Shown here: positions 1 to 16,849 of the stretch, piece after piece | How the letters are laid out: the number at the start of each line of letters is the position of its first letter | How positions within the stretch are numbered: position 1 is the stretch's first letter | NCBI GenBank assembly: GCA_038231275.1 | Contig: JBBRLQ010000013.1 | Span: 64,001 to 128,000 of the forward strand | Source: Polyangiales bacterium | Lineage (GTDB): Bacteria; Myxococcota_A; Polyangia; Polyangiales; Polyangiaceae | Direction of reading: 5' to 3' | DNA length: 64,000 nucleotides | Translations under genes and position numbers: made by a program | Notes under the pieces: generated by a model | Database searches by the model: none | What the model saw: only the letters and a program-made list of their open reading frames with translations | What the model was told of the DNA's origin: nothing

Positions 1-2
1 GC

Positions 3-362
3 CACTGCGGGTCGTTCGACTGCCACGGCAACACGGCGCGCGCCCTCCGCATCTACAGCCAGAACGGCCTGCGCCTCCCAAACGAAGGAGGCGTCCTCCC
101 CGGCGGCGCGGCGACCACCCCCGACGAGGTCTCCGCCAACTACCGATCCATCATCGCGGTCGAGCCCGAGCAGATGAACAGCGTCGTCAAGAGCAGCGGC
201 GACCCCTACTCGCTCCTCATCTTGAAGAAGCCGCTCCTGATCGAGACGCACAAGGGCGGCACCGTCATGATCAAGGGTGACGACACCGAAAAGTGCATCA
301 CCGGCTGGGTCAAAGGCACCGTCGACAAAAACGTCTGCACCGCCGCGGCGCAGCTTCCTTAG
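3..362 (+). CDS. 3' part of a putative c-type heme protein with a CX4CH motif (truncated by the window edge)
   Basis: The frame is open from base 3 (HCGSFDCHGNTARALRIYS...) and continues into ORF 174..362. It has a CGSFDCH motif and a later His (ETHKGG) as candidate distal ligand. Confidence 0.6.
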   Translation, partial: HCGSFDCHGNTARALRIYSQNGLRLPNEGGVLPGGAATTPDEVSANYRSIIAVEPEQMNSVVKSSGDPYSLLILKKPLLIETHKGGTVMIKGDDTEKCITGWVKGTVDKNVCTAAAQLP

Positions 363-390
363 TCCCCGAGCGAGGCTCGCGGACTAAGGA
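356..390. terminator. Hairpin overlapping the stop codon of the first CDS
   Basis: TCCTTAGTCC (356-365) pairs with GGACTAAGGA (381-390) around an inner CGAGC/GCTCG stem. No U-tract. Confidence 0.5.
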
Positions 391-396
391 GACCTA

Positions 397-625
397 CGTT
401 TGTGTGGGCCCTGCGGGCCCCTCCACGCCGAGGAACGGCGTGGAGCCCTCCCCGCACATCGCCTGCGGCGAATGTCGTGCGGGGCACGACGCGGGAGAAG
501 AGATTTCACGGCCTTCGCTACGTGTGGGTCCGCCGTCGCGCGGTGCGCGACTTCGCCCGAAGGGCGAGGCGGGGAGGGCTCCACGCCGTTCCTCGGCGTG
601 GAGGGGCCGCAGGCCCACACAAACG
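397..625. repeat. Nested palindromic intergenic element (REPIN/MITE-like), copy 1
   Basis: Arms 397-455 and 569-625 are reverse complements apart from two 1-nt indels. Each arm carries the hairpin CTCCACGCCG-N5-CGGCGTGGAG. It lies between convergent genes. Confidence 0.8.
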
Positions 626-644
626 AAGGCTGATTTGGCGAAGC

Positions 645-1511
645 CTAATCAGCCCCGGCGTCGGGTTGCTTGACGGCCTGGCAACGCCCCGCGTTCATGT
701 TGCTGATCGTGTCGCTCACGAACTGCGTGATGTTCGCCATCACCGTCGGGCTGAGCGCGAATCGCGGGTGACTGTTGGCGTTCACTTGCTGCGCCTCGGT
801 TCCCTTGTCCATCATGCGCCGCGAGTTCTGCAGCGAGTCGAACGCGCCCGACGCGTTGACCGAGCCGACCACGAGCCGCTGGATGTACGGGAACTGCGTG
901 AACTTGAGGAACGTCTCTTGTTTGTTCTGGCTCAGCCAGAGGCTCGCTTGCCCCTTGATGTGACAGGAGAGGCACTGCCCCTCGTTCTCGGTGTTCGTCT
1001 CGGCGATCTTGTCGAGTCCGAGCGCCTGCCACTCCGTGTAGTCCATGCAGGCGCCGAACGCCTTGAACGCAGCGCGCAGGTTCGCGGGCTTGCCGGTGTC
1101 GCCGGACAGCTTGCGCGCGGTGACCTCCATCTTGAGCCACTGCGTCACGAGATCGCCCTGATCGCTCGTGAGCGCAGGACCGCTGTGGAGGCCGTGCTGC
1201 ACGAGAGGGCTCGAGCTCGGATCGGCGATGAGGCCGGTCGTGCCCTCGAGCGCGTTGTAGCTCGCGTCGCCGCCGCTCGCGAGGAACACGGGGGCTCCGC
1301 GCTCGCCGGTCGCGTGGCACTTCGAGCACGTCGGCTCGATCGACGGATAGACCTTGTTGACGAAGAACGCGTGGGCCGCGGCCGTGTCGCCTCCGCCCGT
1401 GGTGCCGCTCGTGCCGCCGCCGCCGCCGGAGTCGGACGACGAGCCGCACGCGAGCATGCCGGCGGTGCCGAGCACCGCGACAATCGCAGCAACGTGAACT
1501 CGGGCCCTCAT
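645..1511 (-). CDS. Diheme c-type cytochrome-like lipoprotein
   Basis: Lipobox MLA-C after a hydrophobic signal; two CXXCH motifs (CSKCH, CLSCH); ATGA overlap with the upstream paralogue at 1508-1511. Confidence 0.75.
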   Translation of the reverse strand: MRARVHVAAIVAVLGTAGMLACGSSSDSGGGGGTSGTTGGGDTAAAHAFFVNKVYPSIEPTCSKCHATGERGAPVFLASGGDASYNALEGTTGLIADPSSSPLVQHGLHSGPALTSDQGDLVTQWLKMEVTARKLSGDTGKPANLRAAFKAFGACMDYTEWQALGLDKIAETNTENEGQCLSCHIKGQASLWLSQNKQETFLKFTQFPYIQRLVVGSVNASGAFDSLQNSRRMMDKGTEAQQVNANSHPRFALSPTVMANITQFVSDTISNMNAGRCQAVKQPDAGAD

Positions 1512-2404
1512 TTGCCACCTCCGTCCGCCGCGTCGGGCGGTCCGGCGTCTCTGGGTACGACGAACGGCTGCCCGCACGTCCCGCTCGCGACGTTCTGCAG
1601 CGTCGCGGTGACGAAGTTGTCGAGCGCGTTGGTCACGTTCGGCGGGAGGCCGAACGACGGATGGCAGTCGGTCTTCCCATCGGGGCACGGCTCGTCCGCC
1701 TTGTCGGCGAAGCGTCCGGCGGGCACGAGGGAGTCGAAGTTACCGTCCTTGTCGAGCTTGCCGACGACGAACTTCTGGATGAACGGGAACTGCTTCGCCT
1801 TCTCGAACGTCTCGCGCGAGCCTGCCGACAGCCACGCGCTGCCCTGCCCGATCGAGTGACAGCCCATGCAGGGCCCGTCGATGTCCGTCTGCGAGAACGG
1901 CAAGTCGCCCACTCGGAAATACTCCCACATGTCGAAATTCATGCAGTCTGCATACGATTTGTACGCCGCCTGGAGCGTCGGCGCCTTTTGCACGCTGCCG
2001 GACAGGCCGCGCGCGGTGGCTTCCATGTTGAGCCACTGCGTGAGCACCGTGCGCTGCTCCGGGGTCAACTGAATCGTCTGGTCGGTGTGACTGTGCTGAA
2101 CGAGCGGGCTCTTCGACGGTTCGGCGATGAGCCCGATCGTGTTCGTGATCAGCTGGTAGCTCTGCTCCCCGCTCGCCGCGAGGAAGACCGAGGCCGCTCC
2201 CCCGGCGCCGTGACAGTTCGCGCAGCCCCTAGAGACTTGCGGGAACACCTTCGAGATGAAGTAGTCACGCGCGCCGAGCTGCGCGTCCGCGTTGTCGGTC
2301 GCGGGGTCGGGAGTTGACGCCGTCTTCTTGCAGCCGGTGGCGCTGGCCGCCGCGGCTGCAAGAGACAACGAAGCGAGGAGAAGAGCTGCAGCCTTCGATC
2401 TCAT
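1508..2404 (-). CDS. Diheme c-type cytochrome-like lipoprotein (paralogue of 645..1511)
   Basis: Lipobox ATG-C; CANCH and CMGCH; colinear similarity with the neighbour (GLIAxPSxSPLVQH, QWLxMExTAR, ETFxKxxQFPxIQ). Confidence 0.75.
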   Translation of the reverse strand: MRSKAAALLLASLSLAAAAASATGCKKTASTPDPATDNADAQLGARDYFISKVFPQVSRGCANCHGAGGAASVFLAASGEQSYQLITNTIGLIAEPSKSPLVQHSHTDQTIQLTPEQRTVLTQWLNMEATARGLSGSVQKAPTLQAAYKSYADCMNFDMWEYFRVGDLPFSQTDIDGPCMGCHSIGQGSAWLSAGSRETFEKAKQFPFIQKFVVGKLDKDGNFDSLVPAGRFADKADEPCPDGKTDCHPSFGLPPNVTNALDNFVTATLQNVASGTCGQPFVVPRDAGPPDAADGGGK

Positions 2405-2446
2405 TGTGACCTCGGTGGAGGGACTCGCGGGAGAAGTGCCGTCGGT

Positions 2447-4207
2447 TCAGGCCTTCTTGGTGCGGCGACGAGCGCCAGCGATCACCAAGCCGACGAGCGC
2501 GAGCCCACCCAGCATCGTACCAGAATCCGTCTGCGTACCAGGCGTGCTGCACGCGCAACCGCTCGGGGAAGCCGGCGCACCATTGTTCTGGTTTCCGGTG
2601 TTGTCGGTGGTCGGGACCGGCGGCTGATCGACGGGCGCCGGGTTCTGCGGCGTAAGGACCTGATCGGCCTGGCCAGGGATGAACGAGAGGTACAAGGAGT
2701 TCTTGTAGTCGCCCGGAACACGCCCGCTCACCGCGGCGACGAAGAACGATTTGACGTCCTTCATGTAGCCACTGTCCTGGTGGTAGCCGGGGTTCGGCAC
2801 GTCGCCGATGCAGCGGAGGAAGTCACGGCCTTGGCGCATCGGGTTTTCGCCGTACCAGTTCGCGAGGTGGCCCGAGTCGCCGTACCAGCTGATCGGCCAC
2901 TTGTGCGCCTGATCGTTGTACGTGAACACCTTCGTCGGCGTGTCGTAGTTGACCATGACCATCTCCGCGCGGCCGATGCCGGTGGGAGGGGCGCTGATCA
3001 CGCCGACGTGCGCGGCGCCGTCGACACCGAAGGCGCCGGTGCAGATCGTCGAGTGCGTCTGGTGCGCGGCGACGCCGGTGACGTGGCCGTTGATGGTGAA
3101 CGCGTCGGCCGCGAGATCCATCGTGTAGAGGTGCGCGACGTTCGAACCCTTGAGGTTCGTGTTCTGCCCCATCGCGTTCGACTCGATGGTGCTGAGCGCG
3201 AAGCTCGTGTCGTTGATCTTCGCGACGGTCGGCTGACCCATGTAGTGCTTGGTGCCGTCCTTGTCCTCGTACGACGGCGCGATCAGCTGCTTCCAGCGGA
3301 CGTTGCCGGTGGTGGAGTCGAGGATGGCGCACTCGGTGCCGACTTCGACGGGGCGGTTGTTGCCCTTGCCGGCGCAGTAGAGCGAGCGCGTGGCGTCGAT
3401 CGCCTTGAGCGTCGGGCGGCCGATACGGGCCGGCGAAACGACCTGTTGGATCCAGTTGCGCTTCAGCGTGTAGTTGACGTCCACCTTCGTGAGCTGGATG
3501 CCGAAGCCGTACATGACCTCGGTCGCGTTGCCGGCGGTGCTGAGGTAGCCGCCCGACCACTGCCCGTTGCCGTTGTACGCGAGGTCCGGCGCGCCGTCGT
3601 TGTTGTCGATCTTGTCGGTCGGCACGTTGTTGTCGGTCGCAGTGACCGTGTTGCCGGCGGGGAGCTCGGTGATCGACTTCGCGTTCACCATGATCGGCGC
3701 CGCGACGACGTTGCACATGTGGTCGATCGCGCCGACGTACGTGTTCGGGCGGTTGCTGTTGTAGTCCGAGCCGTAGGCCCACATGATGACGTTGCCGTCG
3801 TTGGCGATGCGCGGGTGGTTGCAGAGGCGGTTGCCGCCGCCCTTGTAGTAAGAGAGCTGCTTCAGGTGAACGCGCTCGGCGGGCGCGCCGACGGCCTGGA
3901 GCTCGTAGCTCGAGCATGAGCACTGCCAGGGGCCGTAGCCGCTCTTCTCGTCCATCGACTGCATCGTGACGAGCACGACGAACTGCTTGCCGTCCTTCGT
4001 GATGGTCGTCACGTCGGTCTGCTCGAAGCCGGGGCCGCGGCGCTTCATCTCGCCGTCGAGGCGGCCCTCGTTTCCGGAGCCGGCCATGAGGACGACCGCC
4101 GAGCTGTTCACGGCGGTGCCCGGAGCAGTGTTCCCTGCAGTGGCATCTGCCGCCACGAGAGTGAGGAGCGAAGCCCCGACGAACCCAACGACGTGACGTG
4201 CTTTCAT
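2447..4207 (-). CDS. Secreted protein with MYXO-CTERM sorting tail
   Basis: Signal peptide MKARHVVGFVGASLLTLVAADATA; C-terminus SGCACST, hydrophobic helix, RRRTKKA. Confidence 0.8.
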   Translation of the reverse strand: MKARHVVGFVGASLLTLVAADATAGNTAPGTAVNSSAVVLMAGSGNEGRLDGEMKRRGPGFEQTDVTTITKDGKQFVVLVTMQSMDEKSGYGPWQCSCSSYELQAVGAPAERVHLKQLSYYKGGGNRLCNHPRIANDGNVIMWAYGSDYNSNRPNTYVGAIDHMCNVVAAPIMVNAKSITELPAGNTVTATDNNVPTDKIDNNDGAPDLAYNGNGQWSGGYLSTAGNATEVMYGFGIQLTKVDVNYTLKRNWIQQVVSPARIGRPTLKAIDATRSLYCAGKGNNRPVEVGTECAILDSTTGNVRWKQLIAPSYEDKDGTKHYMGQPTVAKINDTSFALSTIESNAMGQNTNLKGSNVAHLYTMDLAADAFTINGHVTGVAAHQTHSTICTGAFGVDGAAHVGVISAPPTGIGRAEMVMVNYDTPTKVFTYNDQAHKWPISWYGDSGHLANWYGENPMRQGRDFLRCIGDVPNPGYHQDSGYMKDVKSFFVAAVSGRVPGDYKNSLYLSFIPGQADQVLTPQNPAPVDQPPVPTTDNTGNQNNGAPASPSGCACSTPGTQTDSGTMLGGLALVGLVIAGARRRTKKA

Positions 4208-4238
4208 GGTAGCCCTCTTTGATCTCTGGTTTTCGGGT

Positions 4239-5288
4239 CTAGAGTTCGTCGTCATCGCCGCCACCACCACCACCCTGGCCGCCGCCGGAGTTGTTGGAGT
4301 TGGAGTCGGCGTTGACATCATTTTTCGGCAGCACGATGGTGCGTGCGGGAGGCGTGTTCTTTACGAAGATCTGAAGCGCGGACACCTTGGCCGCCTTGGA
4401 GTCTCCGGCCGGCATCGCGATCTGGCCGTGGTTGTGGCGCGGGAGCGAGAAGGCAAGCTTGTCCGCGCCGCCCGCCTTGCCGTCGACGCGCAGGATGACC
4501 TCGTCGTCGCGCACGAAGTCCATGGCTTTCGCCTGCTTCGCGTCGACGCCGATCGAGGTCAAGTAGCCGGGGAGCGAGAAGCGGGGGTTCTCGACGCTCG
4601 AGTCGACGAGGAGGCCGTTCGGGAGCTCCTTGCGCTTCACCGTCGCGGCGAGCTTGCCGTCGACGTAGACGCGCGTGCCCTTGCTGATCTCGGCCGGAGC
4701 GTACGGGATGCCGACGATCGGCTTGCCGTCCGCGAAGGCGAGGTCGCCGTTCTGGAGGGTCGGCGCCTCTTTGTCCACGTAGACGGTGATCGCGCTGATC
4801 ATGTCGACCGTGGTGTCGGCCTTGAGGTCCGTGACCGCGAACATGATGCGGGGCTTGCCACCCTCGGCGCCGCGCGAGAACGAGAAGTGGACGCCGTCCT
4901 GCACGCGGCGGAACTCGGTCCCGTCGAGCGTGACGACGCGCGTTCCGCCGTAGACGTGGAGAGCCTTCACCTTGGCGACGTCGACGCCGAGAGCGCGAAC
5001 GTACTCGCCCAGGTAGTAGTTGGGGGAGCCGCCGGTCATCGAGTCGTGCATCTTCAAGCCGGCGGGGAGCTCGGTCGAGCGGATGGCCGCGAGGGGCGTG
5101 CCGTCGACGTAGATCATCGCCTCCTTGAGGCGGGGCTTCTTCGGCGCGAGGACTTCTTGCGTCGGCATCGGCGCGACGGCCGCCGTCTTGGCGCTCCCCT
5201 GCGAGGAAGGCGCCTTCTTGCACGCCGTGACCAGCACCGAAGCGCTGGCGGCGAGCAGGACGACGCAGGTGCAGGCGATGAAACGCAT
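4239..5288 (-). CDS. Lipoprotein with two internally repeated domains
   Basis: Lipobox VTA-C; repeat 1 IYVDG..ELP..LGEYVRALGVD and repeat 2 VYVDG..ELP..LPGYLTSIGVD. Confidence 0.7.
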   Translation of the reverse strand: MRFIACTCVVLLAASASVLVTACKKAPSSQGSAKTAAVAPMPTQEVLAPKKPRLKEAMIYVDGTPLAAIRSTELPAGLKMHDSMTGGSPNYYLGEYVRALGVDVAKVKALHVYGGTRVVTLDGTEFRRVQDGVHFSFSRGAEGGKPRIMFAVTDLKADTTVDMISAITVYVDKEAPTLQNGDLAFADGKPIVGIPYAPAEISKGTRVYVDGKLAATVKRKELPNGLLVDSSVENPRFSLPGYLTSIGVDAKQAKAMDFVRDDEVILRVDGKAGGADKLAFSLPRHNHGQIAMPAGDSKAAKVSALQIFVKNTPPARTIVLPKNDVNADSNSNNSGGGQGGGGGGDDDEL

Positions 5289-5524
5289 CGGACGACCTGA
5301 CTGCATGGCGTGTGCCGCCGCGTATTCCCGCGGAATCTGCGAAATTCGTTCGTTACAGCGATGCAACACGATGTGACCTGGGGGTTACCGCCCAACAGAG
5401 TGGGGGGCTTCCACCCCGACCCCAGGCAACTCCTTGCCTCCTCCTCTTGAGGGTCTGCGCATCGCCGCGAAGAAAGGTCGATCTTTTGCGATCCTGGGTC
5501 TGCTCGACGAGGCATCGGGGCGAT

Positions 5525-5540
5525 GGGCCGGCATCTTGCA
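5525..5540 (+). promoter_or_regulatory. Possible sigma-54 (-24/-12) promoter of the globin gene
   Basis: GGGCCGGCATCTTGCA has GG-N10-GC spacing with TTGCA, about 67 nt before the ATG at 5607. Confidence 0.35.
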
Positions 5541-5606
5541 CAACGGGACGTCGTCGCGGTGCACGGGCTGCGTGTTGGGCTCGCAGTCAAAAGGAGAGGT
5601 CGGAAG

Positions 5607-6329
5607 ATGACTACAAGGCGCGCGGGTTGGGCCATCGTGTTTGGAGCGGCCGTTGCGGCCACGGGCCTCATGCTCGCCTGCAGCTCGAACGACGAGACCG
5701 TCGCCGGCAAGGTGAACCCCGCGGGTCCGGGCAGCGATCAAGACGCAACGACCGGCGACGCCGCGCTTCAACCCGACACGCTCCTCCCGCCCGGCGCGCC
5801 TCTCTGCACGAAGTATCCGAACGGCCCCGCACTGGTCACGAAGATCACCGCGGACCTGCTCGACTCGCTCAACGCCGACTGCCGCGTTTCGGCCTATTTT
5901 ACCGCGCCCAAGAGCGGCGCCGCGCACCTGTCGCAGTGCCTCCAGAGCCAGATCTCGACCTTCTTCCAGTGCCCGGGCGCGACGTACAGCGTCGACCAGG
6001 CCGGCAAGACGTGCCGCACCATGGGAGACGCGCACAAGGGAATGAACCTTCGCTCGGCGGACTTCGACGCGTTCATTACGAACCTCGTCGCGGTGCTGAA
6101 GAAGAACGGGATCTCGAGCGACGACATCACCGCGGTGCTGCCGACGTTCACCGGCACCAAGGTCGCGATCGTCCCGAACCCCAAGGAGCTCGGAAACTCG
6201 ATGTGCTCCTGCCCGAACGACGTCACGCCAGACGGCGGATACTGCGGGCTCGACGCCGGAATCGACGCGGGAGACGCGGGAGACGGCGGTGACTCCGGCG
6301 CCATCGACGCCTCGGATGACGGCGGCTGA
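5607..6329 (+). CDS. Group I truncated-hemoglobin-like lipoprotein
   Basis: Purine-rich RBS-like AGGAGAGG; lipobox MLA-C; D.RV..YF (CD1 Phe) and TMGDAHKGMNLRSADFDAFITNLVAVLKKNG match the 2/2 globin F-G helix signature with a proximal His. Confidence 0.75.
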   Translation: MTTRRAGWAIVFGAAVAATGLMLACSSNDETVAGKVNPAGPGSDQDATTGDAALQPDTLLPPGAPLCTKYPNGPALVTKITADLLDSLNADCRVSAYFTAPKSGAAHLSQCLQSQISTFFQCPGATYSVDQAGKTCRTMGDAHKGMNLRSADFDAFITNLVAVLKKNGISSDDITAVLPTFTGTKVAIVPNPKELGNSMCSCPNDVTPDGGYCGLDAGIDAGDAGDGGDSGAIDASDDGG

Positions 6330-6348
6330 TCCCACCGCGGGAGACGCG

Positions 6349-7050
6349 ATGACGAAGCCTGCGAGCCGCGCGGTCCGCGTCGCGAAGCGGGCCGCGATCG
6401 CGGCGTGTGCGATCGTCGCAGTGACGGGATTGCTCCATACGCGCGCCGCGCGCCCGCTCCTCGCGCGGCTCTCCGGGGGAGGTGCGGCCGGGTGCCCGGT
6501 GCTCGTGGGCGCTTCCCCCCAGGCCCTCGAGGAGCATCGCGCGGCGGCGGTGAAGCCACTGGCGGCGGGCGAGCGCGCACCGACTCGCGCGGCGCTCGCC
6601 TTCACGCTGACCACCACGACGCGTGCGGATGTGGGGGCATGGACGGCGAGCCATGCGCTCGAGTGCAAAGACGACGTCGCGGGGACCGCGCTGCGCTGCA
6701 AGGACGTGGATCCGAAGACGCTCGACGATGGCCAAGTCCCCATCGATGACCTGTTTTTCCTGTTCGATCCGGCAGGGAAGCTCGTCGCCGTGGACGTGAT
6801 GCATCGCGGGGCGAGCGCCGACGAGGCCTCGCGGCTCCTGGACGACGCGTCGTCGCGGCTCCAGCGCGTCTTGAATTCGCCGCCGACGTCCACGAGCGGC
6901 GACCGCACCAGCACCTACCTCACCTCTGCCCCCCTGGCGCAGAGCGCGATCGAGTACCGGTTCCGCGATCTCGCGGTCGACGTCAACGCGACCAACTTCG
7001 GCGAGCGCGGGATCATCGTGCGCGAGCAGTACCGCGCCATCCCGGACTGA
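6349..7050 (+). CDS. Hypothetical exported/membrane-anchored protein
   Basis: Starts 20 nt after the globin stop; N-terminal hydrophobic segment; normal codon usage. Confidence 0.65.
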   Translation: MTKPASRAVRVAKRAAIAACAIVAVTGLLHTRAARPLLARLSGGGAAGCPVLVGASPQALEEHRAAAVKPLAAGERAPTRAALAFTLTTTTRADVGAWTASHALECKDDVAGTALRCKDVDPKTLDDGQVPIDDLFFLFDPAGKLVAVDVMHRGASADEASRLLDDASSRLQRVLNSPPTSTSGDRTSTYLTSAPLAQSAIEYRFRDLAVDVNATNFGERGIIVREQYRAIPD

Positions 7051-7195
7051 CCGCGCAGCCCGACGCTCGAGCCGACGCAGGCGACGCCCCCCAGGGCGCG
7101 GCAACGAGCCCCCAAACCACGGGTGGGACGGCGTCGTAGAGGGGCCCACGAATCGAGTTTTCCCGGGCAAAGGGTGGCAAGAAATTGCCCGCGCG

Positions 7196-7211
7196 TGGCG
7201 TGCCGCGTGCA
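7196..7211 (+). promoter_or_regulatory. Possible sigma-54 promoter
   Basis: TGGCGTGCCGCGTGCA (GG-N10-GC), followed by GGAGG and a GTG at 7239. Confidence 0.45.
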
Positions 7212-7238
7212 ATGCTTCTTCTCGGAGGTTCTCTGCCC

Positions 7239-8606
7239 GTGAAGAAGCCCGATACTGGTAACGGCGTCATCGTGATGAAGAAGCTCACCACGCGAGGCCT
7301 GCAGGCGCTCGCCGGCGGCCCGAGCCGTCTACGGAGCTCGAAGCCGTCACCGTTCGGAGCGCAGCCTTCGAAGAGCGCGCAGAGCCCCGAGGTCGAGAAG
7401 ATGCGTCCGCCGGTCGACTCGCTCAACGAGGTGACCCTTCCGCGTGAGACGGCGGTGAAGCCGATCGCGCTCGCGAGCGACGAGGAGATCGATCACGCGA
7501 CGCTTCTCGTCGAGCAGGCGCAGCCGAAGCTTCGCGACGAGGACATCGAGACGTTGATGCAGTCGAACCCGCTCTCGTCGCCGCGCCCGGCCGCCGGTCT
7601 TGCGGCGCGTGAGGACGAACGCGTCGAGCGCGTCGAGCGGACCGCGCTCCTCGTGGCGCCTCCCCCGTCGGCGGCGATGCCGTCGCCGCTTGGTGAGCCG
7701 GAGCCGCCGAAGCCGCAGATGACGCTCCGTACGCCGCCGACCCTCATCCACGCGCAGAACGCGATCCCTGACGAGATCCGGCAGCTCGCGATCAAGGCAC
7801 TCGCCGATCAGAAGGCCGCCGCGGCGGCTCCTCCGCCACCCGCCGCTCCCTTGTCCCAGCCGATGCAAGCCAAGACGGCCGTGACGCCGGTGCCGCAAAA
7901 ACCGCAGCCGGGAGCGCCTGCGCTCGTGAAGGGCGGCGGCAAAGTGCAGATCGTGGTGCGCGAGACGAAGCGCCGCACAGCGGTCGGGTGGACGGCAATG
8001 CTGCTCGCGCTCGGCGTGTTCGTCGGCTTGTCGACGGTCGCCGTGATCCACGGCGACGCGAGGCACGCGTGGGACGCGGCGAAGAACTATGCGTCGCCGA
8101 AGCCGGCCGAGCCGGTCATCGCGGCAGCGCCTGCGGTTCAAGCGCCGGGGATGGATCCCGTCGCCGTCGCGCCCGCTCCCGTTCCTCCGCCCATTGCCGC
8201 TCCGGCGCCCGCCGCCGATCCGATCGCCGCGAACACCGACCTGAAGGTCGCCGACAACAAGCCGAGCGACGTGAAGGACGACGCAAAGGCGTCGCCGAAG
8301 CCCGAGCCGAAGCCCGAGGTCACGAAACCCGATCCCGCGCCTCGCCCGCAGCAGAGGCCGTCGAACGCCTACGCGAGCGCGCCGTCGCGCTTCGCGGCCG
8401 CAAAGCCGGAGCCCAAGCCCGAGCCGATGTTCGTCGCCGCGAAGCCCGAGCCGAAGCCGAAGCCCGAGCCCGTCGCCGCCGCGATCAAGCCGAAGCCCGA
8501 GAAAGATCCGGCGCCGGCCCCGACGCCCGCTGCGAAGCCCAAGGACGACGACGTCGCGAAGATCTCCCAAATGGCGCAGCAGCAACTCGGCGCCGCTTTG
8601 CCCTAG
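7239..8606 (+). CDS. Pro/Ala/Lys-rich single-pass membrane protein
   Basis: One TM helix (WTAMLLALGVFVGLSTVAVI) and KPEP repeats; start placed at the GTG after GGAGG. Confidence 0.7.
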   Translation: MKKPDTGNGVIVMKKLTTRGLQALAGGPSRLRSSKPSPFGAQPSKSAQSPEVEKMRPPVDSLNEVTLPRETAVKPIALASDEEIDHATLLVEQAQPKLRDEDIETLMQSNPLSSPRPAAGLAAREDERVERVERTALLVAPPPSAAMPSPLGEPEPPKPQMTLRTPPTLIHAQNAIPDEIRQLAIKALADQKAAAAAPPPPAAPLSQPMQAKTAVTPVPQKPQPGAPALVKGGGKVQIVVRETKRRTAVGWTAMLLALGVFVGLSTVAVIHGDARHAWDAAKNYASPKPAEPVIAAAPAVQAPGMDPVAVAPAPVPPPIAAPAPAADPIAANTDLKVADNKPSDVKDDAKASPKPEPKPEVTKPDPAPRPQQRPSNAYASAPSRFAAAKPEPKPEPMFVAAKPEPKPKPEPVAAAIKPKPEKDPAPAPTPAAKPKDDDVAKISQMAQQQLGAALP

Positions 8607-8638
8607 GCGCTGCGCGCCTTCGGGAAAAGCATCTTTGA

Positions 8639-8909
8639 CTAGTGGGGCTTGCGCCCCCTCGCGCGTGAAGAACACGCGCGAGCCTCCCCGCATCGCCGAG
8701 GAACGGCGAAGTCGCGCGATGCGCGCGACGGCGTACCCAGACGTCGGCGCCCTAGTTGCGCTCTTCGCAGAGAAAGATGCGCCCGCTGTTCTGCTCTTCG
8801 CGAGATGACCTTCCGCGATGCCGTCGCGCGGTCGCGCGACTTCGCCGTTCCTCAGCGAGGCGGGGAGGCTCAAAACGCTCCGCGTTTTGAGGGGCGGCAA
8901 GCCCACTAG
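8639..8909. repeat. Nested palindromic intergenic element, copy 2
   Basis: Imperfect terminal IR starting and ending in CTAG; inner 40-bp IR 8680-8719/8832-8871 with 2 mismatches; side hairpins; shares motifs with 397..625. Confidence 0.8.
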
Positions 8910-8917
8910 CTGAAAAC

Positions 8918-8970
8918 GCAGTTGAAGCTCCGGCGGATTGACTCAGTCAATCCGCCGGAGCTTCATCTGC
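8918..8970. terminator. 26-bp-arm palindrome centred on the stop codon of the methyltransferase gene
   Basis: GCAGTTGAAGCTCCGGCGGATTGACT-C-AGTCAATCCGCCGGAGCTTCATCTGC, one mismatch. Confidence 0.6.
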
Positions 8971-9803
8971 ACGTCGCTCGACCAGTGCGCGGCGAAGGCG
9001 CGGACGCACGTGGAGAGGTAGCGATCGTAGTCGTCGAAGACTTGGTCGCCGTAGGTCGCACGGATGTCCTTCTCATGGAGCTTCATGCGGCGCAGCCACT
9101 CGGCGGTCGTCTTGCCGTAGTGCTCGCGGCGGGTGTGAAGCTCGACGATCTCCCAGCGTGGGCTGACGGCGGTGACGAGCTCCTCGAGGCGCGGGTTGAG
9201 GCCGCCCGGGAAGATGACGTCGGCGGTGAAGCGGAGATCCTCGAGGTCCTTCCGGTTGCGCGGCATGCGGTTCCGGAGGATGGCCTGGAAGCCGAAGCAG
9301 TCGCCCGGCTTCACGAACGTGGCGCACTTCTCGAAGTAGCCGCGATAGATCTGAACGGCGAGACCCTCGGCCGCCTGCTTCGGCGAGCACAGGTGGTCGA
9401 TCATCTCGATGGAGATGAGGGCGTCGTATTGCTCCTCGCCTTGCTCCTTCGGCGAGAAGTCGGCGTAGTCCATGCACCACACCTTCACGCCCTGAAGATT
9501 GCGGGCCATGATCTCTGCGTGCTGCGCGGTCGAGAGCGTGATGCCGTGCGCCGCCTTGGCGCCGCGCTTGGCGACGTACTCGAGGTTCGCGCCCCAGCCG
9601 CATCCAATGTCGAGCACGCGCTTGGTCTTGTCGACCTCGGCGAAGTCGTAGAGGATCCGGCTCTTGTTCTCCTGCGCGGTCTCGAGCGTGTCGCCGTCAC
9701 GGAAGACGGCGCACGTGTAGTGCATGCGCTCGTCGAGCCAGAGGCGGAAGAACTCGTTCGCGACGTCGTAGGAGACCTCGATTTGATCCTTTGTGCTGGT
9801 CAT
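8943..9803 (-). CDS. Cyclopropane-fatty-acyl-phospholipid synthase family SAM methyltransferase
   Basis: YDVANEFFRLWLD..M.YTCA, VLDIGCGWG, GITLS, SIEMIDH, IFPGG motifs. Confidence 0.9.
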   Translation of the reverse strand: MTSTKDQIEVSYDVANEFFRLWLDERMHYTCAVFRDGDTLETAQENKSRILYDFAEVDKTKRVLDIGCGWGANLEYVAKRGAKAAHGITLSTAQHAEIMARNLQGVKVWCMDYADFSPKEQGEEQYDALISIEMIDHLCSPKQAAEGLAVQIYRGYFEKCATFVKPGDCFGFQAILRNRMPRNRKDLEDLRFTADVIFPGGLNPRLEELVTAVSPRWEIVELHTRREHYGKTTAEWLRRMKLHEKDIRATYGDQVFDDYDRYLSTCVRAFAAHWSSDVQMKLRRID

Positions 9804-9837
9804 GACGGCGCTGGTATGCCACGAAATACTCTGGTCG

Positions 9838-11169
9838 TCACGGGGTGACGGTGAACGTCGCCGCCGCGCCCGCCGCGCCCGCGGGGATGGTGCCGCCGTA
9901 GACGAGGACGAGCTGATTGTTGGAGCCGTCGTGGAAGCCGTACGCGAGCGCCGTCTTGGGGGACGTGTTCGACGCGACCGTCGTGCCGCCGAGCATGAAC
10001 GTCCACGTCGCGCTGTTCCACCCGTCGAGCACGAACACAGAGGCGAAGCGCGACGCGGCGGTCTTCATCACCCAACTAACCGGCGAGGTCCCGGCGGGCG
10101 TGGTGAGGTACCAGGCGAGCTCCCCGTCGTCGAAATTCGCGGCGGTGGCGCCGGTGAGGGCGCCGATCCCCTGATCGAAGTAGTCCGCGGCGCGATCGCC
10201 GAGCCCCTGCGCGCTGAGCCCGCCCGGCCACACCATGAGCTCGCCGTTGCGCGCGAACATCGCGCCCGCCGCGACGCTGGTGTTTTGGACCAACCAGAAG
10301 TGATCCGTCGAGAAGTCCGAGCCGCCGTTCGTCTCGCCCGAGCCGTTCATGAGCAGCGCGTTCGGCCCGGGCGGCGGGCCGTCTACACGCGAGTACGCCT
10401 CGGTGCTCCCGCTGATGGCGGAGATGGCCCAGTTGACGTTGGTGGCCGGTGTACTGTGCATGTATTCGACGTTGTCGATCGGCACCGCCGCGGCGTTCGA
10501 GTTGTTCGCCTGGTACTTCAGCCCGACGCGGCCGCTCGGGTAGATGGTGTGGGCGGCGGTGACGTTGAGCTTCTGCGCGCCAGTGCCGAGATCGAACTTC
10601 GAGATCACCTGAACGCGGGCCGGCGTTTGGTCGATGATCTGCGCGCTGGACGGGCTCGCCTCGCGGCTCAAGTAGAAGACGCCGCCGATCTGGATCTGAA
10701 ATGGCTCGAGGAGCAAGTTGGCGCTGCAGCCACCATCGTAGCGGCACGAGAGGTTCGCGCTCGTCGTGCCGATGTCGACCCACTCGGTGAGGAGCCACGC
10801 CGACTCGCTGCCGAACGACAGCCGAAACCGACCGGTCGCCTCGACGGAGATCGGCGACGCGGCGGGCGAGCCGGTCACGACGAGATCCACCGCGGAGGCG
10901 ACGACGTCCGGCGAGGCGTCGCTCGCAGCGTCGGGGAGGTGCGCGTCGGTCGTGGAGCCGTCCGGCGGCGGCGAGGACGTGTCCGATGTGAGCGTGTCGC
11001 CCACCACGTCGGTCAAGCTCGCATCGTTTGGTTGCGCGCCGTCGGGTCCGACGGCGCCGTCGCCGAGCCCGTTGGTGTCGAGAAACAGCGAGCAGGCGAA
11101 CGCCGACGCGGCGAAAAGTCCGCATGAATAGGCCATCACGAATGGGTGGTGCCCCCGACGCTTCCCCAT
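9838..11169 (-). CDS. Hypothetical lipoprotein, beta-rich
   Basis: Basic N-region and lipobox AFA-C; Asp/Ala/Pro linker followed by a globular region. Confidence 0.7.
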   Translation of the reverse strand: MGKRRGHHPFVMAYSCGLFAASAFACSLFLDTNGLGDGAVGPDGAQPNDASLTDVVGDTLTSDTSSPPPDGSTTDAHLPDAASDASPDVVASAVDLVVTGSPAASPISVEATGRFRLSFGSESAWLLTEWVDIGTTSANLSCRYDGGCSANLLLEPFQIQIGGVFYLSREASPSSAQIIDQTPARVQVISKFDLGTGAQKLNVTAAHTIYPSGRVGLKYQANNSNAAAVPIDNVEYMHSTPATNVNWAISAISGSTEAYSRVDGPPPGPNALLMNGSGETNGGSDFSTDHFWLVQNTSVAAGAMFARNGELMVWPGGLSAQGLGDRAADYFDQGIGALTGATAANFDDGELAWYLTTPAGTSPVSWVMKTAASRFASVFVLDGWNSATWTFMLGGTTVASNTSPKTALAYGFHDGSNNQLVLVYGGTIPAGAAGAAATFTVTP

Positions 11170-11217
11170 GAACTCGTCACTGTACCGCGATTTGGGCGCG
11201 GGCTACTCTGGGGAACG

Positions 11218-12735
11218 ATGGGCGAGCTTGGCTCCCTCTCCGCCACGCGCATCCTAGGCCGCTACGCGCTCTACGACGAGATCGCGGCGGGCGGCATGGC
11301 AACGGTCCATCTGGGGCGGCTCATCGGCCCCGTCGGCTTCTCTCGCACAGTCGCCATCAAGCGACTTCACGCGCAGTATGCGAAGGATCCGGAGTTCGTC
11401 GCGATGTTCCTCGACGAAGGGCGCCTCGCTGCCCGCATTCGGCATCCAAACGTCGTCCCGACTCTCGATGTCGTAGCGCTCGACAAAGAGCTGTTCCTCG
11501 TCATGGAGTACGTGCAGGGTGAGTCGCTCTCGCGGCTCTTTCGCGCCGCGGCGAACAAGGGAGCGCCGATCCCCCGCAACATTGCCGTCACCGTGATGGC
11601 GGGCGTGCTCCACGGCCTCCACGCCGCGCACGAGGCGAAGACGGAGCAGGGCTCGGCGCTCGCGATCGTTCACCGCGACGTGTCGCCGCAGAACGTGCTC
11701 GTGGGCATCGACGGCGTCGCCCGCGTGCTCGATTTCGGTGTCGCCAAGGCGACCGAGCGCATGCAGACGACGCAGGACGGGCGCATCAAGGGAAAAATTT
11801 CCTACATGGCGCCCGAGCAGCTGATGAGCGACGCGGTCGATCGACGCGCCGACGTGTACGCCGCAGCGGTCGTGCTTTGGGAGCTGCTCGCGGGCAAGCG
11901 CTTGTTCGAGGGCTCGAACGACGCGCGCGTGCTGGCCAAGGTGCTCGGCGAGCCGCCCCAGCCGCCGAGCAGCGTCGAACCCTCGGTGCCGAAGGACGTC
12001 GACCGTATCGTGATGCGCGGGCTCTCGCGCGATCGAGCGCTCCGCTTTCAAACGGCGCGCGAGATGGCGGTGGCGCTCGAGAACGTAGGCGCGCTCGCGC
12101 CCGCGTCGGCGATCGGCGAGTGGGTCGAGTCGATCGCGCACGACGCGCTCGTGAAGCGGGCGAGCCGCGTGAGCGAGATCGAGAGCCGTTCGGACATCCA
12201 CGCTGCGATCGTCCCGGCGCCGCCGGTGAGCGGGCCGGTGCCGAGATCTCACGCCGGCGCGGAGGAGAGCGCTGCGCCGGCGAGCGGTACGAGCCCGAGC
12301 CAGGCGCCGACGAGCGTCTCGTCGCGAAGGATCGCGCCGACGCTGCCGGAAGAGATGGTGAGCGTCGACGCCGAGCCGCCCGAGCCGGCGCCGGTGCCGA
12401 AGCGGCGTGGCCGCGTGGTGCTCGGGCTCGCCGTGGCGGTGGCCGCAGTCGGCGCCATTGCCTTTTTCGCGCGCGGACGAGCGACGACCGCGACCGCGAC
12501 CACGAGCACGATCGCGACCACGACCACGACCACGACCCCGACCCCGAGCCCGACCGCGACCGCAGAGCCGGTGACCATCGCGACCACGACCTCGAAGAAG
12601 CCCATGGCGCATCCGCCGGCGAAGGCGCCGTCGCCCGCTGCGAGGCCGCCGAAAACGCCGGCGGATTCCTGCGATCCTCCGTACACGATCGACACGGATG
12701 GAATTCGCCACGCGAAGCCGGAGTGCCTAAAATGA
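11218..12735 (+). CDS. Membrane Ser/Thr protein kinase
   Basis: GGMATV, VAIK, HRDVSPQN, DFG and YMAPE intact; TM helix; Thr/Pro stalk; C-terminal CDPPY..D..GI...K..C. Confidence 0.92.
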   Translation: MGELGSLSATRILGRYALYDEIAAGGMATVHLGRLIGPVGFSRTVAIKRLHAQYAKDPEFVAMFLDEGRLAARIRHPNVVPTLDVVALDKELFLVMEYVQGESLSRLFRAAANKGAPIPRNIAVTVMAGVLHGLHAAHEAKTEQGSALAIVHRDVSPQNVLVGIDGVARVLDFGVAKATERMQTTQDGRIKGKISYMAPEQLMSDAVDRRADVYAAAVVLWELLAGKRLFEGSNDARVLAKVLGEPPQPPSSVEPSVPKDVDRIVMRGLSRDRALRFQTAREMAVALENVGALAPASAIGEWVESIAHDALVKRASRVSEIESRSDIHAAIVPAPPVSGPVPRSHAGAEESAAPASGTSPSQAPTSVSSRRIAPTLPEEMVSVDAEPPEPAPVPKRRGRVVLGLAVAVAAVGAIAFFARGRATTATATTSTIATTTTTTTPTPSPTATAEPVTIATTTSKKPMAHPPAKAPSPAARPPKTPADSCDPPYTIDTDGIRHAKPECLK

Positions 12736-13547
12736 GCACGATCACACGCCCCGCCGTTGCTTCGCTGTTCGCGCTGCAACTCGCGATCGCCCCGAGCGTG
12801 GCTTCTGCCGTGGACGTGCTTGCACGGTGCTCGGCGACCTACTCAGAGTCGCAGGTCGAGAAGAAAGCCGCGCACCTCCTCAAGGCGCGCGAGAAGCTCG
12901 TCGTGTGCGCGCAGCCCACATGCCCATCGTTCATCACCGCGGACTGCACGCAGTGGCTCGCCGAGGTCGACGCGCGCATGCCGCAGGTCGCGTTCGTCGC
13001 TCGCGATCGCAGCGGACGCGACAAGGTCGACGTGACCGTGGCGATGGACGGGCAGGAGATCTTGCACGAGCTCAGCGGCAAGGCGGTTGCCGTCGACCCC
13101 GGCGCGCACACCTTCACGTTCACGACGAGCGGCGCGCCATCTGTCAGCGAGCAGACGATCATCGCGGAGGGCGAGAAGAGCCGCGTCATCACCGTCACCA
13201 TCGGCGGCGAGGCGCCGGCCAGCGCGGGCAAGTCGGCCGTCGTCGCCCCGCGGACGCGCCGCGCCTCCGCCGTCCCCGCCATCGTCGTGGGCGCCGCCGG
13301 GATCGTCGTGCTCGGCGCGTCGGCGTTCTTTGGATTCTCCGCCAAGAGCGACGTCGACCACATGAAGTCCACATGCGCGCCCACCTGCCCGAGCGGCGAC
13401 ATCCACTCGGCAGACGCGAAGATCCTCGTCTCCGACGTCACCCTCGCGGTCGGAGTCGTTGCTATCGGCATCGCCGCGTGGCTCTTCTTCTCGCGGGGCG
13501 AGGTCGAAGATACGAGCGCGCGCGTCCCGGGCCTCGTGCGCTTCTGA
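12732..13547 (+). CDS. Exported PEGA-like domain membrane protein coupled to the kinase
   Basis: Overlaps the kinase stop; signal peptide, Cys-containing helical region, VDPG.H.F motif, two C-terminal hydrophobic helices. Confidence 0.75.
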   Translation: MSTITRPAVASLFALQLAIAPSVASAVDVLARCSATYSESQVEKKAAHLLKAREKLVVCAQPTCPSFITADCTQWLAEVDARMPQVAFVARDRSGRDKVDVTVAMDGQEILHELSGKAVAVDPGAHTFTFTTSGAPSVSEQTIIAEGEKSRVITVTIGGEAPASAGKSAVVAPRTRRASAVPAIVVGAAGIVVLGASAFFGFSAKSDVDHMKSTCAPTCPSGDIHSADAKILVSDVTLAVGVVAIGIAAWLFFSRGEVEDTSARVPGLVRF

Positions 13548-13619
13548 CCGGCCGCGACCCGGTCTCCGTCCGTTCGACGGTCACGACGACGTTGTCGATG
13601 ACGACGTCCAGCCCTCGGT

Positions 13620-16040
13620 TCAGGCCCCCAAAAACCCCGTCGCCGGGGCCGGGCTCTGCGTGCGCGCCTTCGGAGGTTGCTCGAGCGCCGCAGCGAGGAC
13701 CTCGTCCATCCTCGCGACGAAGACGAACTCGAGCTCCTTTTTCACCTCGTCCGGAACGTCGTCGAGATCGTGGCGGTTGCGCTCGGGCACGAGCACCCGC
13801 TTGATCCCGGCGCGGTGTGCGGCCAGCACCTTCTCCTTCAGGCCGCCGATCGGGAGCACCCGGCCGCGCAGCGTGATCTCGCCGGTCATCGCGACGTCGT
13901 GGCGGACGCGGATGCCCGTGTACATCGACACGATCGCCGTGAGGAGTGTGACGCCGGCGCTCGGTCCGTCCTTCGGCATCCCGCCCGCGGGGACGTGGAC
14001 GTGCACGTCGTTCGTCTCGAACAGCTCCGGCGCGATGCCGTACCTCTCTGCGTTCGCGCGGGCGTAGCTCATCGCGGCCTGCGCGCTCTCCTTCATCACG
14101 TCTCCGAGCTGACCGGTCAGGATCAGCTTGCCCTTGCCGGCCATTCGCGTCGCCTCGACGAAGAGGATCTCTCCTCCCACCGGGGTCCACGCGAGGCCGG
14201 TCGCCACGCCCGGGTCTTCGGTGCGCTCGGCGATCTCGCCGCGGAAGCGCGGCTGGCCGAGGATCTGGACGACGTCGTCCTCGGTCGCGACCGACCGCTT
14301 CTCGTACTTGCCCTCGGCGAGCCCCACGACGACCGCGCGAACGATCGCCGCGATCTGGCGCTCGAGCGAGCGCACTCCGGCCTCTCGTGTGAAACCGTCG
14401 ATGATCGATTCGAGCGCGGCGTCCGACACGTCGAACTGCTCGGGGGTGAGGCCGTGCTCGCCGAGCTGCTTCGGGACGAGGTGACGGCGCGCGATCGCGA
14501 GCTTCTCTTTGCGGGTGTAGCCGGGGATCTCGATGATCTCCATGCGGTCCTTCAGCGGGCCAGGGATCGTGTCTCCCTGGTTCGCCGTCGCGACGAACAT
14601 CACGCCGGAGAGATCGTACGGGATCTCGAGGTAGTGATCGGTGAACGTGTCGTTCTGCTCGGGATCGAGCACCTCGAGCAACGCGGACGACGGATCGCCG
14701 CGGTAGTCGCGACCGAGCTTGTCGACCTCGTCGAGCATGAGCACCGGGTTGACGGTGCCGGCCTTCTTCATCGCCTGGATGACCTGGCCTGGGAGCGCGC
14801 CGACGTAGGTGCGCCGATGTCCGCGAATGGCCGCTTCGTCGTGCACGCCGCCGAGGCTCATGCGCTGGAATTTGCGGCCAGTGGCCCGGGCGATGCTGCG
14901 GCCGAGCGACGTCTTGCCGACGCCAGGGGGACCGATGAGGCACAAGATCGGCCCCTTCTTGTCGCTCTTCAGCTTGCGGACGGCGAGGTACTCGAGGATG
15001 CGCTTTTTGACCTTCTCGAGGCCGTAGTGATCGTCGTCCAAGACCTTGCGGACCGCGGAGATCTCGGTCGAATCGACGCTGCTCTCCTTCCACGGCACGT
15101 CGAGGATCCACTCGACGTACGTGCGCACCATGGTGAACTCCGGCGACTGCGCGGACATGCCGCGGAGGCGACGGATCTGCTTTTTGACGACGTCGGCGGC
15201 CTCCGTCGAGAGCTGCTTCTCGGCGGCGCGCTTCTCGAGCTCGTCGACGGCGCTGTCCTCGTCGCCGCCTTCGGGATCGAGCTCGTCCTGGATTGCCTTC
15301 AGCTGCTGGCGGAGCACATGCTCGCGCTGCGTCTTGCCGAGCTCGTCCTTGACCTGCGCGTTGATCTTGTCGCGCATCTTGAAGGCCTCGAGGCGGCGCA
15401 TCACGTAGCGCAGGACCTCCCGCAGGCGTGTCTTGTCCTCGAGCATGCCGAGGAGGGTCGCCTTCTCGTCGGCCGTCGCGTCGACGTAACCGGCCACGAA
15501 ATCCGCGAGGCGGCCGGGCTCCTCGATCGACTCGAAGCGGCCGGCCATCTCGCGCGGCAGACCCGGCAGGAACTTGAGCACCTCGCGCGTCGCGTCCTTC
15601 AAGCTCATCCCGAGGGCTTCGAGCTCGCTGTCTTTGTCGGCCGCGTCCTCGTGCGACGTGGTCACGGTGGTTACCCGCCCCTCGAAGAACGGCGCCTCGC
15701 GGGTGAGCGCTTCCAAACGGATTCGCTCCTTGCCCTCGAGGATCACCGCCCAGGTGCCGTCCTTCTGGCGGGCCGCGCCGACGACGCGGGCGAGGACGCC
15801 GATGGGATGGAGGTCGTCCATCTCCGGCTCATCCTTGCGGCCGTCTCTCTGCGTGAAGACGGCAACCGTGATGTTCGGATTCGAAGAGGCGCGAGCCGCG
15901 ATGTGCTCCGCGAGCGCGACGCTCTTCGCGCGACCGACGTCGAAGGAGACCACGATGCCCGGAAACAGCACCGCGTTGCGGAGGGTGAGGATGGGAGATT
16001 CGAACGTTTGGTTCTTGAGGCTGTTCAGGGGGCTCGTCAT
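13620..16040 (-). CDS. lon: ATP-dependent protease La
   Basis: LON N domain, [35 protein letters not shown]. Confidence 0.97.
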
Positions 16041-16066
16041 GGCGTCTTCGTTTGACCGTAAGCACG

Positions 16067-16082
16067 GGCAAAAACTTCGCCA
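16067..16082 (-). promoter_or_regulatory. Sigma-54 (-24/-12) promoter upstream of lon
   Basis: Minus strand TGGCGAAGTTTTTGCC, exact GG-N10-GC spacing, ending 26 nt before the ATG. Confidence 0.6.
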
Positions 16083-16133
16083 CTGTCTTGGATCCGACAG
16101 GCGTATTCTGAGTGGAGAATCGAGGGCTCATCC

Positions 16134-16835: not shown

Positions 16836-16849
16836 GACACGCTCGCCTC

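Follow-up and report, generated by a model that had tools for sequence, protein, structure and literature searches.

A conserved Polyangia locus linking a motif-divergent DUF3570 protein to candidate c-type cytochrome lipoproteins and a truncated-hemoglobin lipoprotein

Among the closest described systems to the locus reported here are the canonical DUF3570 proteins, which have been shown experimentally to be flavinylated by ApbE at two [S/T]GA[S/T] motifs and whose genes cluster with those for ApbE, a thioredoxin-like protein, DUF4266 and often DsbD, their function being unknown (PMC8238504). The abstract of the same study states that some clusters of extracytosolic flavinylated systems suggest redundancy between flavins and cytochromes. 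Porin–cytochrome conduits (Pcc) employ 8-heme and 12-heme cytochromes (PMC4245776, PMC4282303), and cable bacteria encode large fusions of a pentaheme cytochrome with a truncated hemoglobin (lPHCtX), proposed to act as a periplasmic oxidase (PMC11976967). Here we describe a locus of a Polyangiales bacterium (assembly GCA_038231275.1) that resembles each of these in part. It lies at the start of the window, by which we mean the whole stretch of 64,000 nucleotides (nt) analysed, positions 64,001 to 128,000 of the forward strand of contig JBBRLQ010000013.1; the span under study is 3..6329 of this window.

Using gene-order comparison, family and profile searches and structure prediction, we find that this span is part of a conserved locus of ~11 kb and 9–10 genes, found in a few Polyangia lineages, and we propose, with about an even chance of being right, that it is a heme-based extracytoplasmic electron-transfer locus and a variant of the DUF3570 systems. 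Its parts fall into three units: a triad of genes (u1, u2 and g1) with overlapping or abutting starts, which begins 2.9 kb before the window; a four-gene minus-strand run (g5, g4, g3 and g2); and a divergent gene for a truncated-hemoglobin lipoprotein (g6) followed by one for a small exported protein (g7). Gene coordinates were taken from a listing of open reading frames (ORFs) and inspection of start sites, coordinates headed L001 refer to upstream DNA of the same contig, and export signals are by-eye judgements of the translated N-termini. In order along the contig, with lengths in amino acids (aa), the features are:

L001:7080-9260, outside the window: u1, TPR-like and DUF3570 protein, 726 aa, with a signal-peptide-like N-terminus
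L001:9257-9826, outside the window: u2, candidate diheme lipoprotein, 189 aa, with a lipobox-type N-terminus
1..362 (frame 3-362; L001:9823-10362), plus strand: g1, 3' part of the gene of a CX4CH lipoprotein (179 aa) that starts 177 nt before the window
363..644, no strand: convergent intergenic region between g1 and g2, with a hairpin and an inverted repeat pair
645..1511, minus strand: g2, candidate diheme lipoprotein B, 288 aa, paralog of g3, with CSKCH and CLSCH
1508..2404, minus strand: g3, candidate diheme lipoprotein A, 298 aa, with CANCH, CMGCH and a CX6CH-like element (C240...C247-H248)
2447..4207, minus strand: g4, 586 aa, signal peptide, predicted seven-bladed beta-propeller and MYXO-CTERM surface-sorting tail (TIGR03901; structure model)
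4239..5288, minus strand: g5, 349-aa lipoprotein with two tandem copies of a ~125-aa domain (half-against-half alignment)
5289..5606, no strand: divergent intergenic region between g5 and g6, 318 nt, presumed from the layout to hold promoters
5607..6329, plus strand: g6, 240-aa lipoprotein with a group-1 truncated-hemoglobin domain (about residues 66-195; ortholog profile) and six invariant Cys
6289..7050, plus strand: g7, small exported protein with a lipobox-like 'GGCP' site, following g6; its true start is probably downstream of 6289

A preliminary description of this span, made from the sequence alone, had identified the four-gene run, and the spacing that it gave agrees exactly with ours: the gaps are 31 nt (g5/g4) and 42 nt (g4/g3), and the g3 stop and g2 start overlap as ATGA. 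Its view that every product of the run is exported is borne out by the N-termini of g2–g5, which carry a signal sequence or lipobox ('GMLAC' in g2, 'SATGC' in g3 and 'LVTAC' in g5; g4 is signal-peptide-like, as is u1). A lipobox is also apparent in g6 ('LMLAC') and, by inspection, in g1 and u2.

The gene order is conserved well beyond this genome. A synteny scan with one genome per species, in which the locus proteins were mapped by tblastn, yielded 16 loci from Polyangiaceae, Labilithrix, Byssovorax and similar metagenome-assembled genomes. The tandem pair g2–g3 is present in 14 of these, g4 with g5 in 14, g6 in 14, the triad in 13 and g7 (beside g6) in 10; the triad, the four-gene run and the globin gene are kept together in 13 of the 16. 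Identity of g3 to the window protein is 26-82% over the loci and 45-82% in the 14 with the tandem pair. The check on synteny in relatives proposed in the preliminary description comes out positive for 13–14 of the 16 loci. Of the 13 loci that bear the triad, 12 have it converging on g2, the arrangement seen in the window, and in 10 of these 12 the gap is less than 0.5 kb (it is 4.4 kb in L004 and 1.9 kb in L010). The CX4CH protein g1 had been described as a neighbour converging on the run; the convergence stands, but rather than a stray neighbour, g1 is the last gene of a conserved triad that lies mostly outside the window. In L007, only short gaps separate u1, u2, g1, g5, g4, g3, g2 and g6, all of which share a strand; no part is split off by this rearrangement, and we have no stronger evidence for a joint function of the parts. 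Reduced forms also occur: L005, on a 4.8-kb contig, is truly without g4 and g5 and has g6 divergent from g3–g2, the contig ending 946 nt beyond g2; in L016, g4 and g5 accompany one g2/3-like gene, and neither g6 nor triad is present; L017 is a match at a contig edge.

The genome itself carries the triad four times (contigs C13, C5, C17 and C36) and the g6/g5/g4/g2-3 set twice. The second such set (L028; C13:14001-33000, positions 8003-17820) lies ~40 kb upstream of the window and runs from a g6-like truncated-hemoglobin lipoprotein through g5-like and g4-like genes to a g2/3-like gene, with an added class I cytochrome c (PF00034); its flanks hold a TonB-dependent receptor, a collagen-repeat lipoprotein, two genes of the amino-acid-kinase family and an SBP_bac_11/permease/ABC importer. 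The triad copies on C5 (L025), C17 (L026) and C36 (L027) each consist of a DUF3570 protein, a diheme lipoprotein and a CX4CH lipoprotein. Before the C36 copy lies the gene of a Rieske [2Fe-2S] protein that has a lipobox and a Tat-like signal, RRHFLQ; before those on C5 and C17 lie genes of small proteins whose C-termini look, by eye, typical of cytochrome c domains. Among 401 sampled Myxococcota genomes the u2 family occurs in 104 and the g2/g3 family in 11, and DUF3570 is found in 48 of 151 sampled genomes; these counts make the triad type widespread in the phylum and the four-gene run narrow. Globins resembling g6 occur in 58 of the 401, probably including ordinary cytoplasmic ones.

Seven candidate c-heme sites are distributed over the four lipoproteins g1, g2, g3 and u2 (CVVCH and CGNCH in u2, CGSFDCH in g1, and the motifs listed above for g2 and g3), five of them inside the span, as first counted: two in g2, two in g3 and the CX4CH of g1. 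Between the paralogs g2 and g3, identity is 42% over 235 aa (E 4e-64). A database search returned 127 homologs of g3; both CXXCH motifs, H106, C240 and C247-H248 are invariant in all 48 that were aligned, and among the matches listed two CXXCH motifs are present in 116 of 120. The family extends to 465 representative clusters that match g3 at E<=1e-3 in a scan of 1.84 billion representative proteins, and 112 of the 115 g3-family clusters of 250-360 aa among the matches listed have two CXXCH motifs. Both motifs are found in 13 of 14 g2 orthologs; those of u2 do not vary in any of its 14 orthologs, where a second His is also conserved, and the same holds for C62, C67 and H68 of g1 together with a second His, H143 (14 of 14). 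The conservation of the CXXCH motifs anticipated in the preliminary description is thereby confirmed, and the homolog counts (48/48, 116/120, 14/14) indicate that the motifs are more than chance. Three matches to the cytochrome c assembly family PF01578 lie above cut-off in the genome. We take g1, g2, g3 and u2 to be putative c-type cytochromes, in which the motifs would attach heme covalently. In g3, residues 240-248 form a C-x6-C-H-P element that is invariant in the 48 g3-type sequences and of which the paralog g2 keeps only the His-Pro; two possibilities for it are a disulfide beside a heme ligand and a third heme site of unusual type.

The link to described systems is made by u1, which scores 75.2 bits with DUF3570 (PF12094; cut-off 25, E 6e-21), the match spanning positions 111-353 of a profile of 427; the genome as a whole has five DUF3570 matches over cut-off. 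As controls we used four canonical DUF3570 genes from other Myxococcota families, six further loci that were returned being left out. All four controls carry SGAS or TGAS together with SGAT, and within 1.5 kb a redoxin or thioredoxin gene neighbours each of them, whereas ApbE and DUF4266 are found at one of the four each. When u1 is aligned to them, the first site reads D-V-L-T-A-A-S and the second A-T-A-S, and an intervening loop of 10-14 residues is deleted. At these positions neither u1 nor any of its 13 orthologs has [ST]GA[ST]; they have D-x-x-[TS]-A-A-S and A/S-x-A-S instead; the first-site [TS]AAS is found in the window protein and all 13 orthologs, and also in all five DUF3570 genes of the genome. 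Family scans detect no ApbE, thioredoxin-like, DUF4266 or DsbD family among the locus proteins, and the two ApbE genes of the genome lie on other contigs, C58 and C12. On these alignments and scans, the DUF3570 subfamily to which u1 belongs has neither the flavin motifs nor the partners that define the canonical systems, and it has CXXCH lipoproteins instead.

Compared with the DUF3570/ApbE systems (PMC8238504), u1 is alike in having a DUF3570 domain, in being secreted and in belonging to a cluster of exported proteins with redox motifs; it differs in that both its flavinylation sites are replaced and the loop between them is deleted, in that its N-terminus bears ~330 aa more, of TPR-like character (TPR_12, E 0.0016, below cut-off), and in that CXXCH lipoproteins, not ApbE, thioredoxin-like protein, DUF4266 or DsbD, adjoin u1. 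The preliminary description had seen no recognisable respiratory complex, and this has to be qualified: the locus does include a member of DUF3570, a published redox family (PMC8238504), even if u1 is without the flavinylation motifs.

We hypothesize that the seven c-type heme sites on the four lipoproteins would relay electrons, in one direction or the other, between the periplasm and the outer membrane or cell surface, and that u1 would be the membrane-embedded partner of the lipoprotein cytochromes. Heme would have been exchanged for flavin in the u1 subfamily, which has lost both flavinylation motifs and would have taken cytochromes as partners instead. The end points of such a relay would be the propeller g4, presumably at the surface, and the exported hemoglobin g6, which would bind O2 or NO. 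The complex of the u1 C-terminal domain with u2 was predicted with a score of 0.00 in a run without controls, a value that counts neither for nor against binding.

The porin–cytochrome conduits, represented by Geobacter Pcc and Shewanella MtrCAB, are alike in that the gene of a probable outer-membrane protein adjoins genes of exported, c-type-cytochrome-like lipoproteins, and carrying electrons across the outer membrane is a plausible common role (PMC4245776, PMC4282303). They differ in the number of hemes, with two motifs in u2 and one in g1 against 8 or more, and in the barrel family, which here is DUF3570; u1 would be the partner that binds u2. At E<=10, u1 matches DUF3570 and TPR families alone, with no relation to MtrB/OmbB-type porins, and a profile search finds no homolog of u1 in the PDB. 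In the literature on DUF3570, on truncated hemoglobins with signal peptides and on extracellular electron transfer in Myxococcota we found no description of this locus; the supplementary DUF3570 cluster lists of PMC8238504, outside that scope, might hold cytochrome-linked clusters.

The two remaining products of the four-gene run are of different kinds. The designation of g4 as a MYXO-CTERM protein is upheld by TIGR03901, with which residues 587-620 of the long ORF score 23.7 bits (cut-off 20), and by the MYXO-CTERM names that its homologs bear from JGI and NCBI. Its predicted structure (pLDDT 82.8, pTM 0.81) is all-beta and forms a seven-bladed beta-propeller, which in structural comparison resembles generic propellers (YncE, Z 30.7; CylK, 29.3; many WD40 proteins); there is no PDB sequence match, and the Atlas look-alikes are propeller-type families at low scores only (<=0.83). 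A NosZ-like interpretation of this propeller was rejected since it has only two invariant His. The duplicated-domain lipoprotein recognised earlier is g5, the halves of which share 29% identity over 123 aa (E 1e-9), so that the internal duplication is real. No Pfam, PDB or Atlas family was found for g5, and its Atlas look-alikes are unnamed Myxococcota clusters, apart from one match to a molybdopterin oxidoreductase cluster (score 0.82) that we treated as noise.

These two proteins have a part in an explanation of the locus by iron acquisition, which we consider unlikely. Here the cytochromes would act as a surface or periplasmic ferric reductase, g4 and g5 would bind a metal chelate or mineral, and the reduced metal would be imported elsewhere. 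The best structural match of g4 is to E. coli YncE, which is iron-regulated, but at ~1.4 Z above unrelated propellers this preference is slight. The paralogous module L028 sits between a TonB-dependent receptor and an SBP_bac_11/permease/ABC ATPase importer, yet no TonB receptor, transporter or Fur-like site lies in the locus or is kept over the 16 loci, and the truncated hemoglobin would be left without a role. Flavinylated systems have been linked to iron reduction, 25 DUF3570 clusters occurring with the iron transporter VIT1 (PMC8238504).

The globin, g6, has no Pfam or NCBIfam match when searched alone; PF00042 matches 2 of 15 orthologs weakly (best E 0.0018), and none of 23 database homologs carries a precomputed Pfam domain or name. 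A profile built from the 15 orthologs and searched against the PDB matches 22 entries of trHbN or cyanoglobin at E<=0.023, the best being 3aq5 (E 8.3e-10), which supports the earlier identification of a globin lipoprotein. Several of the alignments span 110-138 residues, nearly the whole globin domain (1dly, query 45-195 on chain 24-161; 7tt9, query 68-192 on chain 4-113), and the F-helix 'M..AH.G' with the proximal His (F8) aligns residue for residue with the Tetrahymena protein. This His is present in the window protein, in 12 of the 15 orthologs and in the paralog within the genome, and distal-site residues vary. The three orthologs that lack it (L004, L006 and L011) have the same 3-residue deletion and retain all six Cys; they may be heme-free derivatives. 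The six invariant Cys fit an oxidising compartment and an exported, disulfide-bonded protein. Relative to the group-1 truncated hemoglobins (3aq5 of Tetrahymena, 1dly of Chlamydomonas, 2ksc cyanoglobin and 1idr, HbN of M. tuberculosis), with which it shares profile-level homology over the whole 2/2 globin domain, g6 adds a lipoprotein signal, a ~40-aa linker, an Asp/Gly-rich C-terminal tail and three probable disulfides, and it differs in escaping Pfam when searched by itself, in its variable distal residues and in the orthologs without proximal His.

The protein that follows, g7, is probably also a lipoprotein, judging from the 'GGCP' site after its hydrophobic N-terminus. H50, C69, C126 and C137 do not vary among its orthologs; neither Pfam nor the PDB gave a match, and a paralog lies on contig C6 of the same genome.

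If g6 were the catalytic end of the locus, as an NO dioxygenase or O2 reductase for which the diheme lipoproteins serve as reductases, the propeller and the triad would be accessory or unrelated. The relation of g6 to trHbN and the proximal His in 12 of 15 orthologs favour this envelope O2/NO chemistry, mycobacterial HbN having NO dioxygenase activity, and L005 retains g6 beside g3–g2 in a locus without g4 and g5. A proposed precedent comes from the cable-bacteria lPHCtX fusions, where an exported truncated hemoglobin is likewise associated with exported c-type cytochromes and O2 reduction is proposed (PMC11976967); in the present locus, by contrast, the globin is a separate lipoprotein gene with six invariant Cys, the diheme family is unrelated and the organisms are Myxococcota. 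Against it stand the loss of the proximal His in three orthologs, the divergent transcription of g6 in most loci, three genomes (G230, G305 and G315) that carry the g2/g3 family and have no g6-like match at E<=1e-5, and the linkage of the triad in 13 of 16 loci, which it leaves unexplained. We judge it a little less probable than iron acquisition.

The architecture of u1 suggests a further possibility, that it is no redox protein but a Slam-like outer-membrane translocon of periplasmic TPR region and barrel that flips u2 and g1 to the cell surface. Slam translocons combine a periplasmic TPR region with a C-terminal membrane domain, and their genes lie beside those of lipoprotein cargo. The signal peptide, TPR-like region and C-terminal DUF3570 domain of u1, followed directly by two lipoprotein genes, resemble this arrangement, and the loss of both flavin motifs also speaks for it. 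However, u1 has no DUF560 match at E<=10, and two of the four triad copies in the genome encode short u1 paralogs without the TPR region. The relatives of the u1 domain are moreover flavoproteins, as demonstrated for canonical DUF3570 (PMC8238504), and altogether we regard a Slam-like function as improbable.

What the candidate cytochromes resemble beyond their motifs was sought at the level of families, profiles and folds. No curated cytochrome family of Pfam or NCBIfam reaches its cut-off for g1, g2, g3 or u2, the best match being Cytochrome_CBB3 at 19.5 bits against a cut-off of 27, and such sub-threshold matches are always centred on the CXXCH motifs. Profile searches of the PDB with g3, g4, g5, u2, g1, g7 and u1 gave chance-level rows with a single exception, a motif-driven match of u2 to a cytochrome c555 trimer (E 4.7e-6, 43 residues). 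Profile–profile comparison of g1 or u2 with g3 shows only short, motif-centred similarity (probability 75-79%), so that common ancestry is not established, and Pfam finds no informative extra domain on 14 long fused relatives of the diheme family. The AlphaFold2 model of g3 (pLDDT 80.1) matches no solved cytochrome fold in Foldseek (none at E<=0.001), and in a wider structural comparison the best hit has Z 5.2, on generic helices; the sole low-confidence internal loop of the model, residues 175-188, falls exactly at the second motif, as expected of a model built without heme. A diheme peroxidase (CCP/MauG) interpretation of g2 and g3 was rejected for want of Pfam or fold support.

That the Cys-X-X-Cys-His motifs bind metal or form disulfides instead, in a conserved envelope locus with no electron-transfer chain, would accord with the missing cytochrome families, the many further invariant Cys and the position of the low-confidence g3 loop, but it is very improbable given that the full CXXCH including its His is invariant across 45-100% identity, that candidate sixth ligands are conserved, that the products are exported in a genome with heme-attachment genes, and that the sub-threshold cytochrome matches always centre on the motifs.

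Several of these observations also weigh against a heme-based electron-transfer locus as we propose it. Heme binding by each protein here is a prediction; the candidate cytochromes reach no curated family and g3 no solved cytochrome fold, and in L007 the g2 ortholog has just one CXXCH. Known trans-outer-membrane conduits hold many more hemes than the three that two small lipoproteins would carry here, and the locus contains no inner-membrane electron-entry component. That DUF3570 is an outer-membrane barrel is our assumption. The [TS]AAS of the first site retains the acceptor Ser, so that residual flavinylation of u1 is possible. Finally, there are the globin orthologs without proximal His, which tell against a universal heme role of g6, and the genomes with the g2/g3 family but no g6-like match.

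The proposal of the preliminary description, an envelope electron-transfer, gas-sensing or oxidative module, is sustained in part: a functional, exported module rich in heme motifs is well supported; the unit is larger than claimed, with seven c-heme motifs, and a surface location, a part in gas sensing and a direction of electron flow would be further properties of it. A bolder version of the electron-transfer reading, to which we give only a small chance, is that a DUF3570 subfamily swapped covalent flavins for small c-type cytochrome lipoproteins and so became a minimal trans-outer-membrane conduit, wired to a surface propeller and a disulfide-stapled extracytoplasmic truncated hemoglobin as an O2/NO-reducing or substrate-oxidising terminal system of the outer envelope. 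If true, envelope redox machines would gain a new class, whose parts come almost wholly from families that Pfam lacks.

Of the nine conserved products, six (g1, g2/g3, g4, g5, g7 and u2) belong to families with neither a Pfam or NCBIfam model nor a solved relative, the globin family of g6 is invisible to standard annotation, and the locus ties these unannotated families to DUF3570, a redox protein family of unknown function. Since the diheme family, with its 465 clusters, is small but real, learning what its members do in this locus would give a well-delimited dark family its annotation. That some Myxococcota have the DUF3570 scaffold with flavins and thiol partners, and others have it with putative hemes, amounts to a natural experiment that bears on the proposed redundancy of flavinylation and cytochromes. 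Likewise, an exported truncated hemoglobin beside c-type cytochromes has so far appeared only in the cable-bacteria fusions, and the locus would make extracytoplasmic O2/NO chemistry testable in a second lineage.

The intergenic regions offer few regulatory signals: no sigma-70-like promoter was found, terminator-like sites number 4 against 4.2 expected, and no 8-mer is common to more than 6 of 13 orthologous g5/g6 divergent regions. Directly after the g1 stop there is a 16-bp hairpin (356-390), and the convergent region between g1 and g2 contains an inverted pair of a ~95-nt element, with arms at 393-472 and 552-629 that are 86-94% complementary. By blastn the element is dispersed over contigs C7, C9, C8, C2, C22, C4, C10, C40 and C24 and recurs in the window at about 8645-8906; a REP/MITE-like repeat and a bidirectional terminator are two possible explanations. 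Upstream of the triad and outside the window, a 581-aa sensor histidine kinase (L001:5297-7042) ends 37 nt before u1; it adjoins the cluster only in close relatives (L002, partial, and L003) and lies elsewhere in the locus in L013. Downstream of g7, window positions 7185-8606 encode a 473-aa protein rich in Pro, Ala and Lys and free of Cys, which is conserved only in the two closest relatives.

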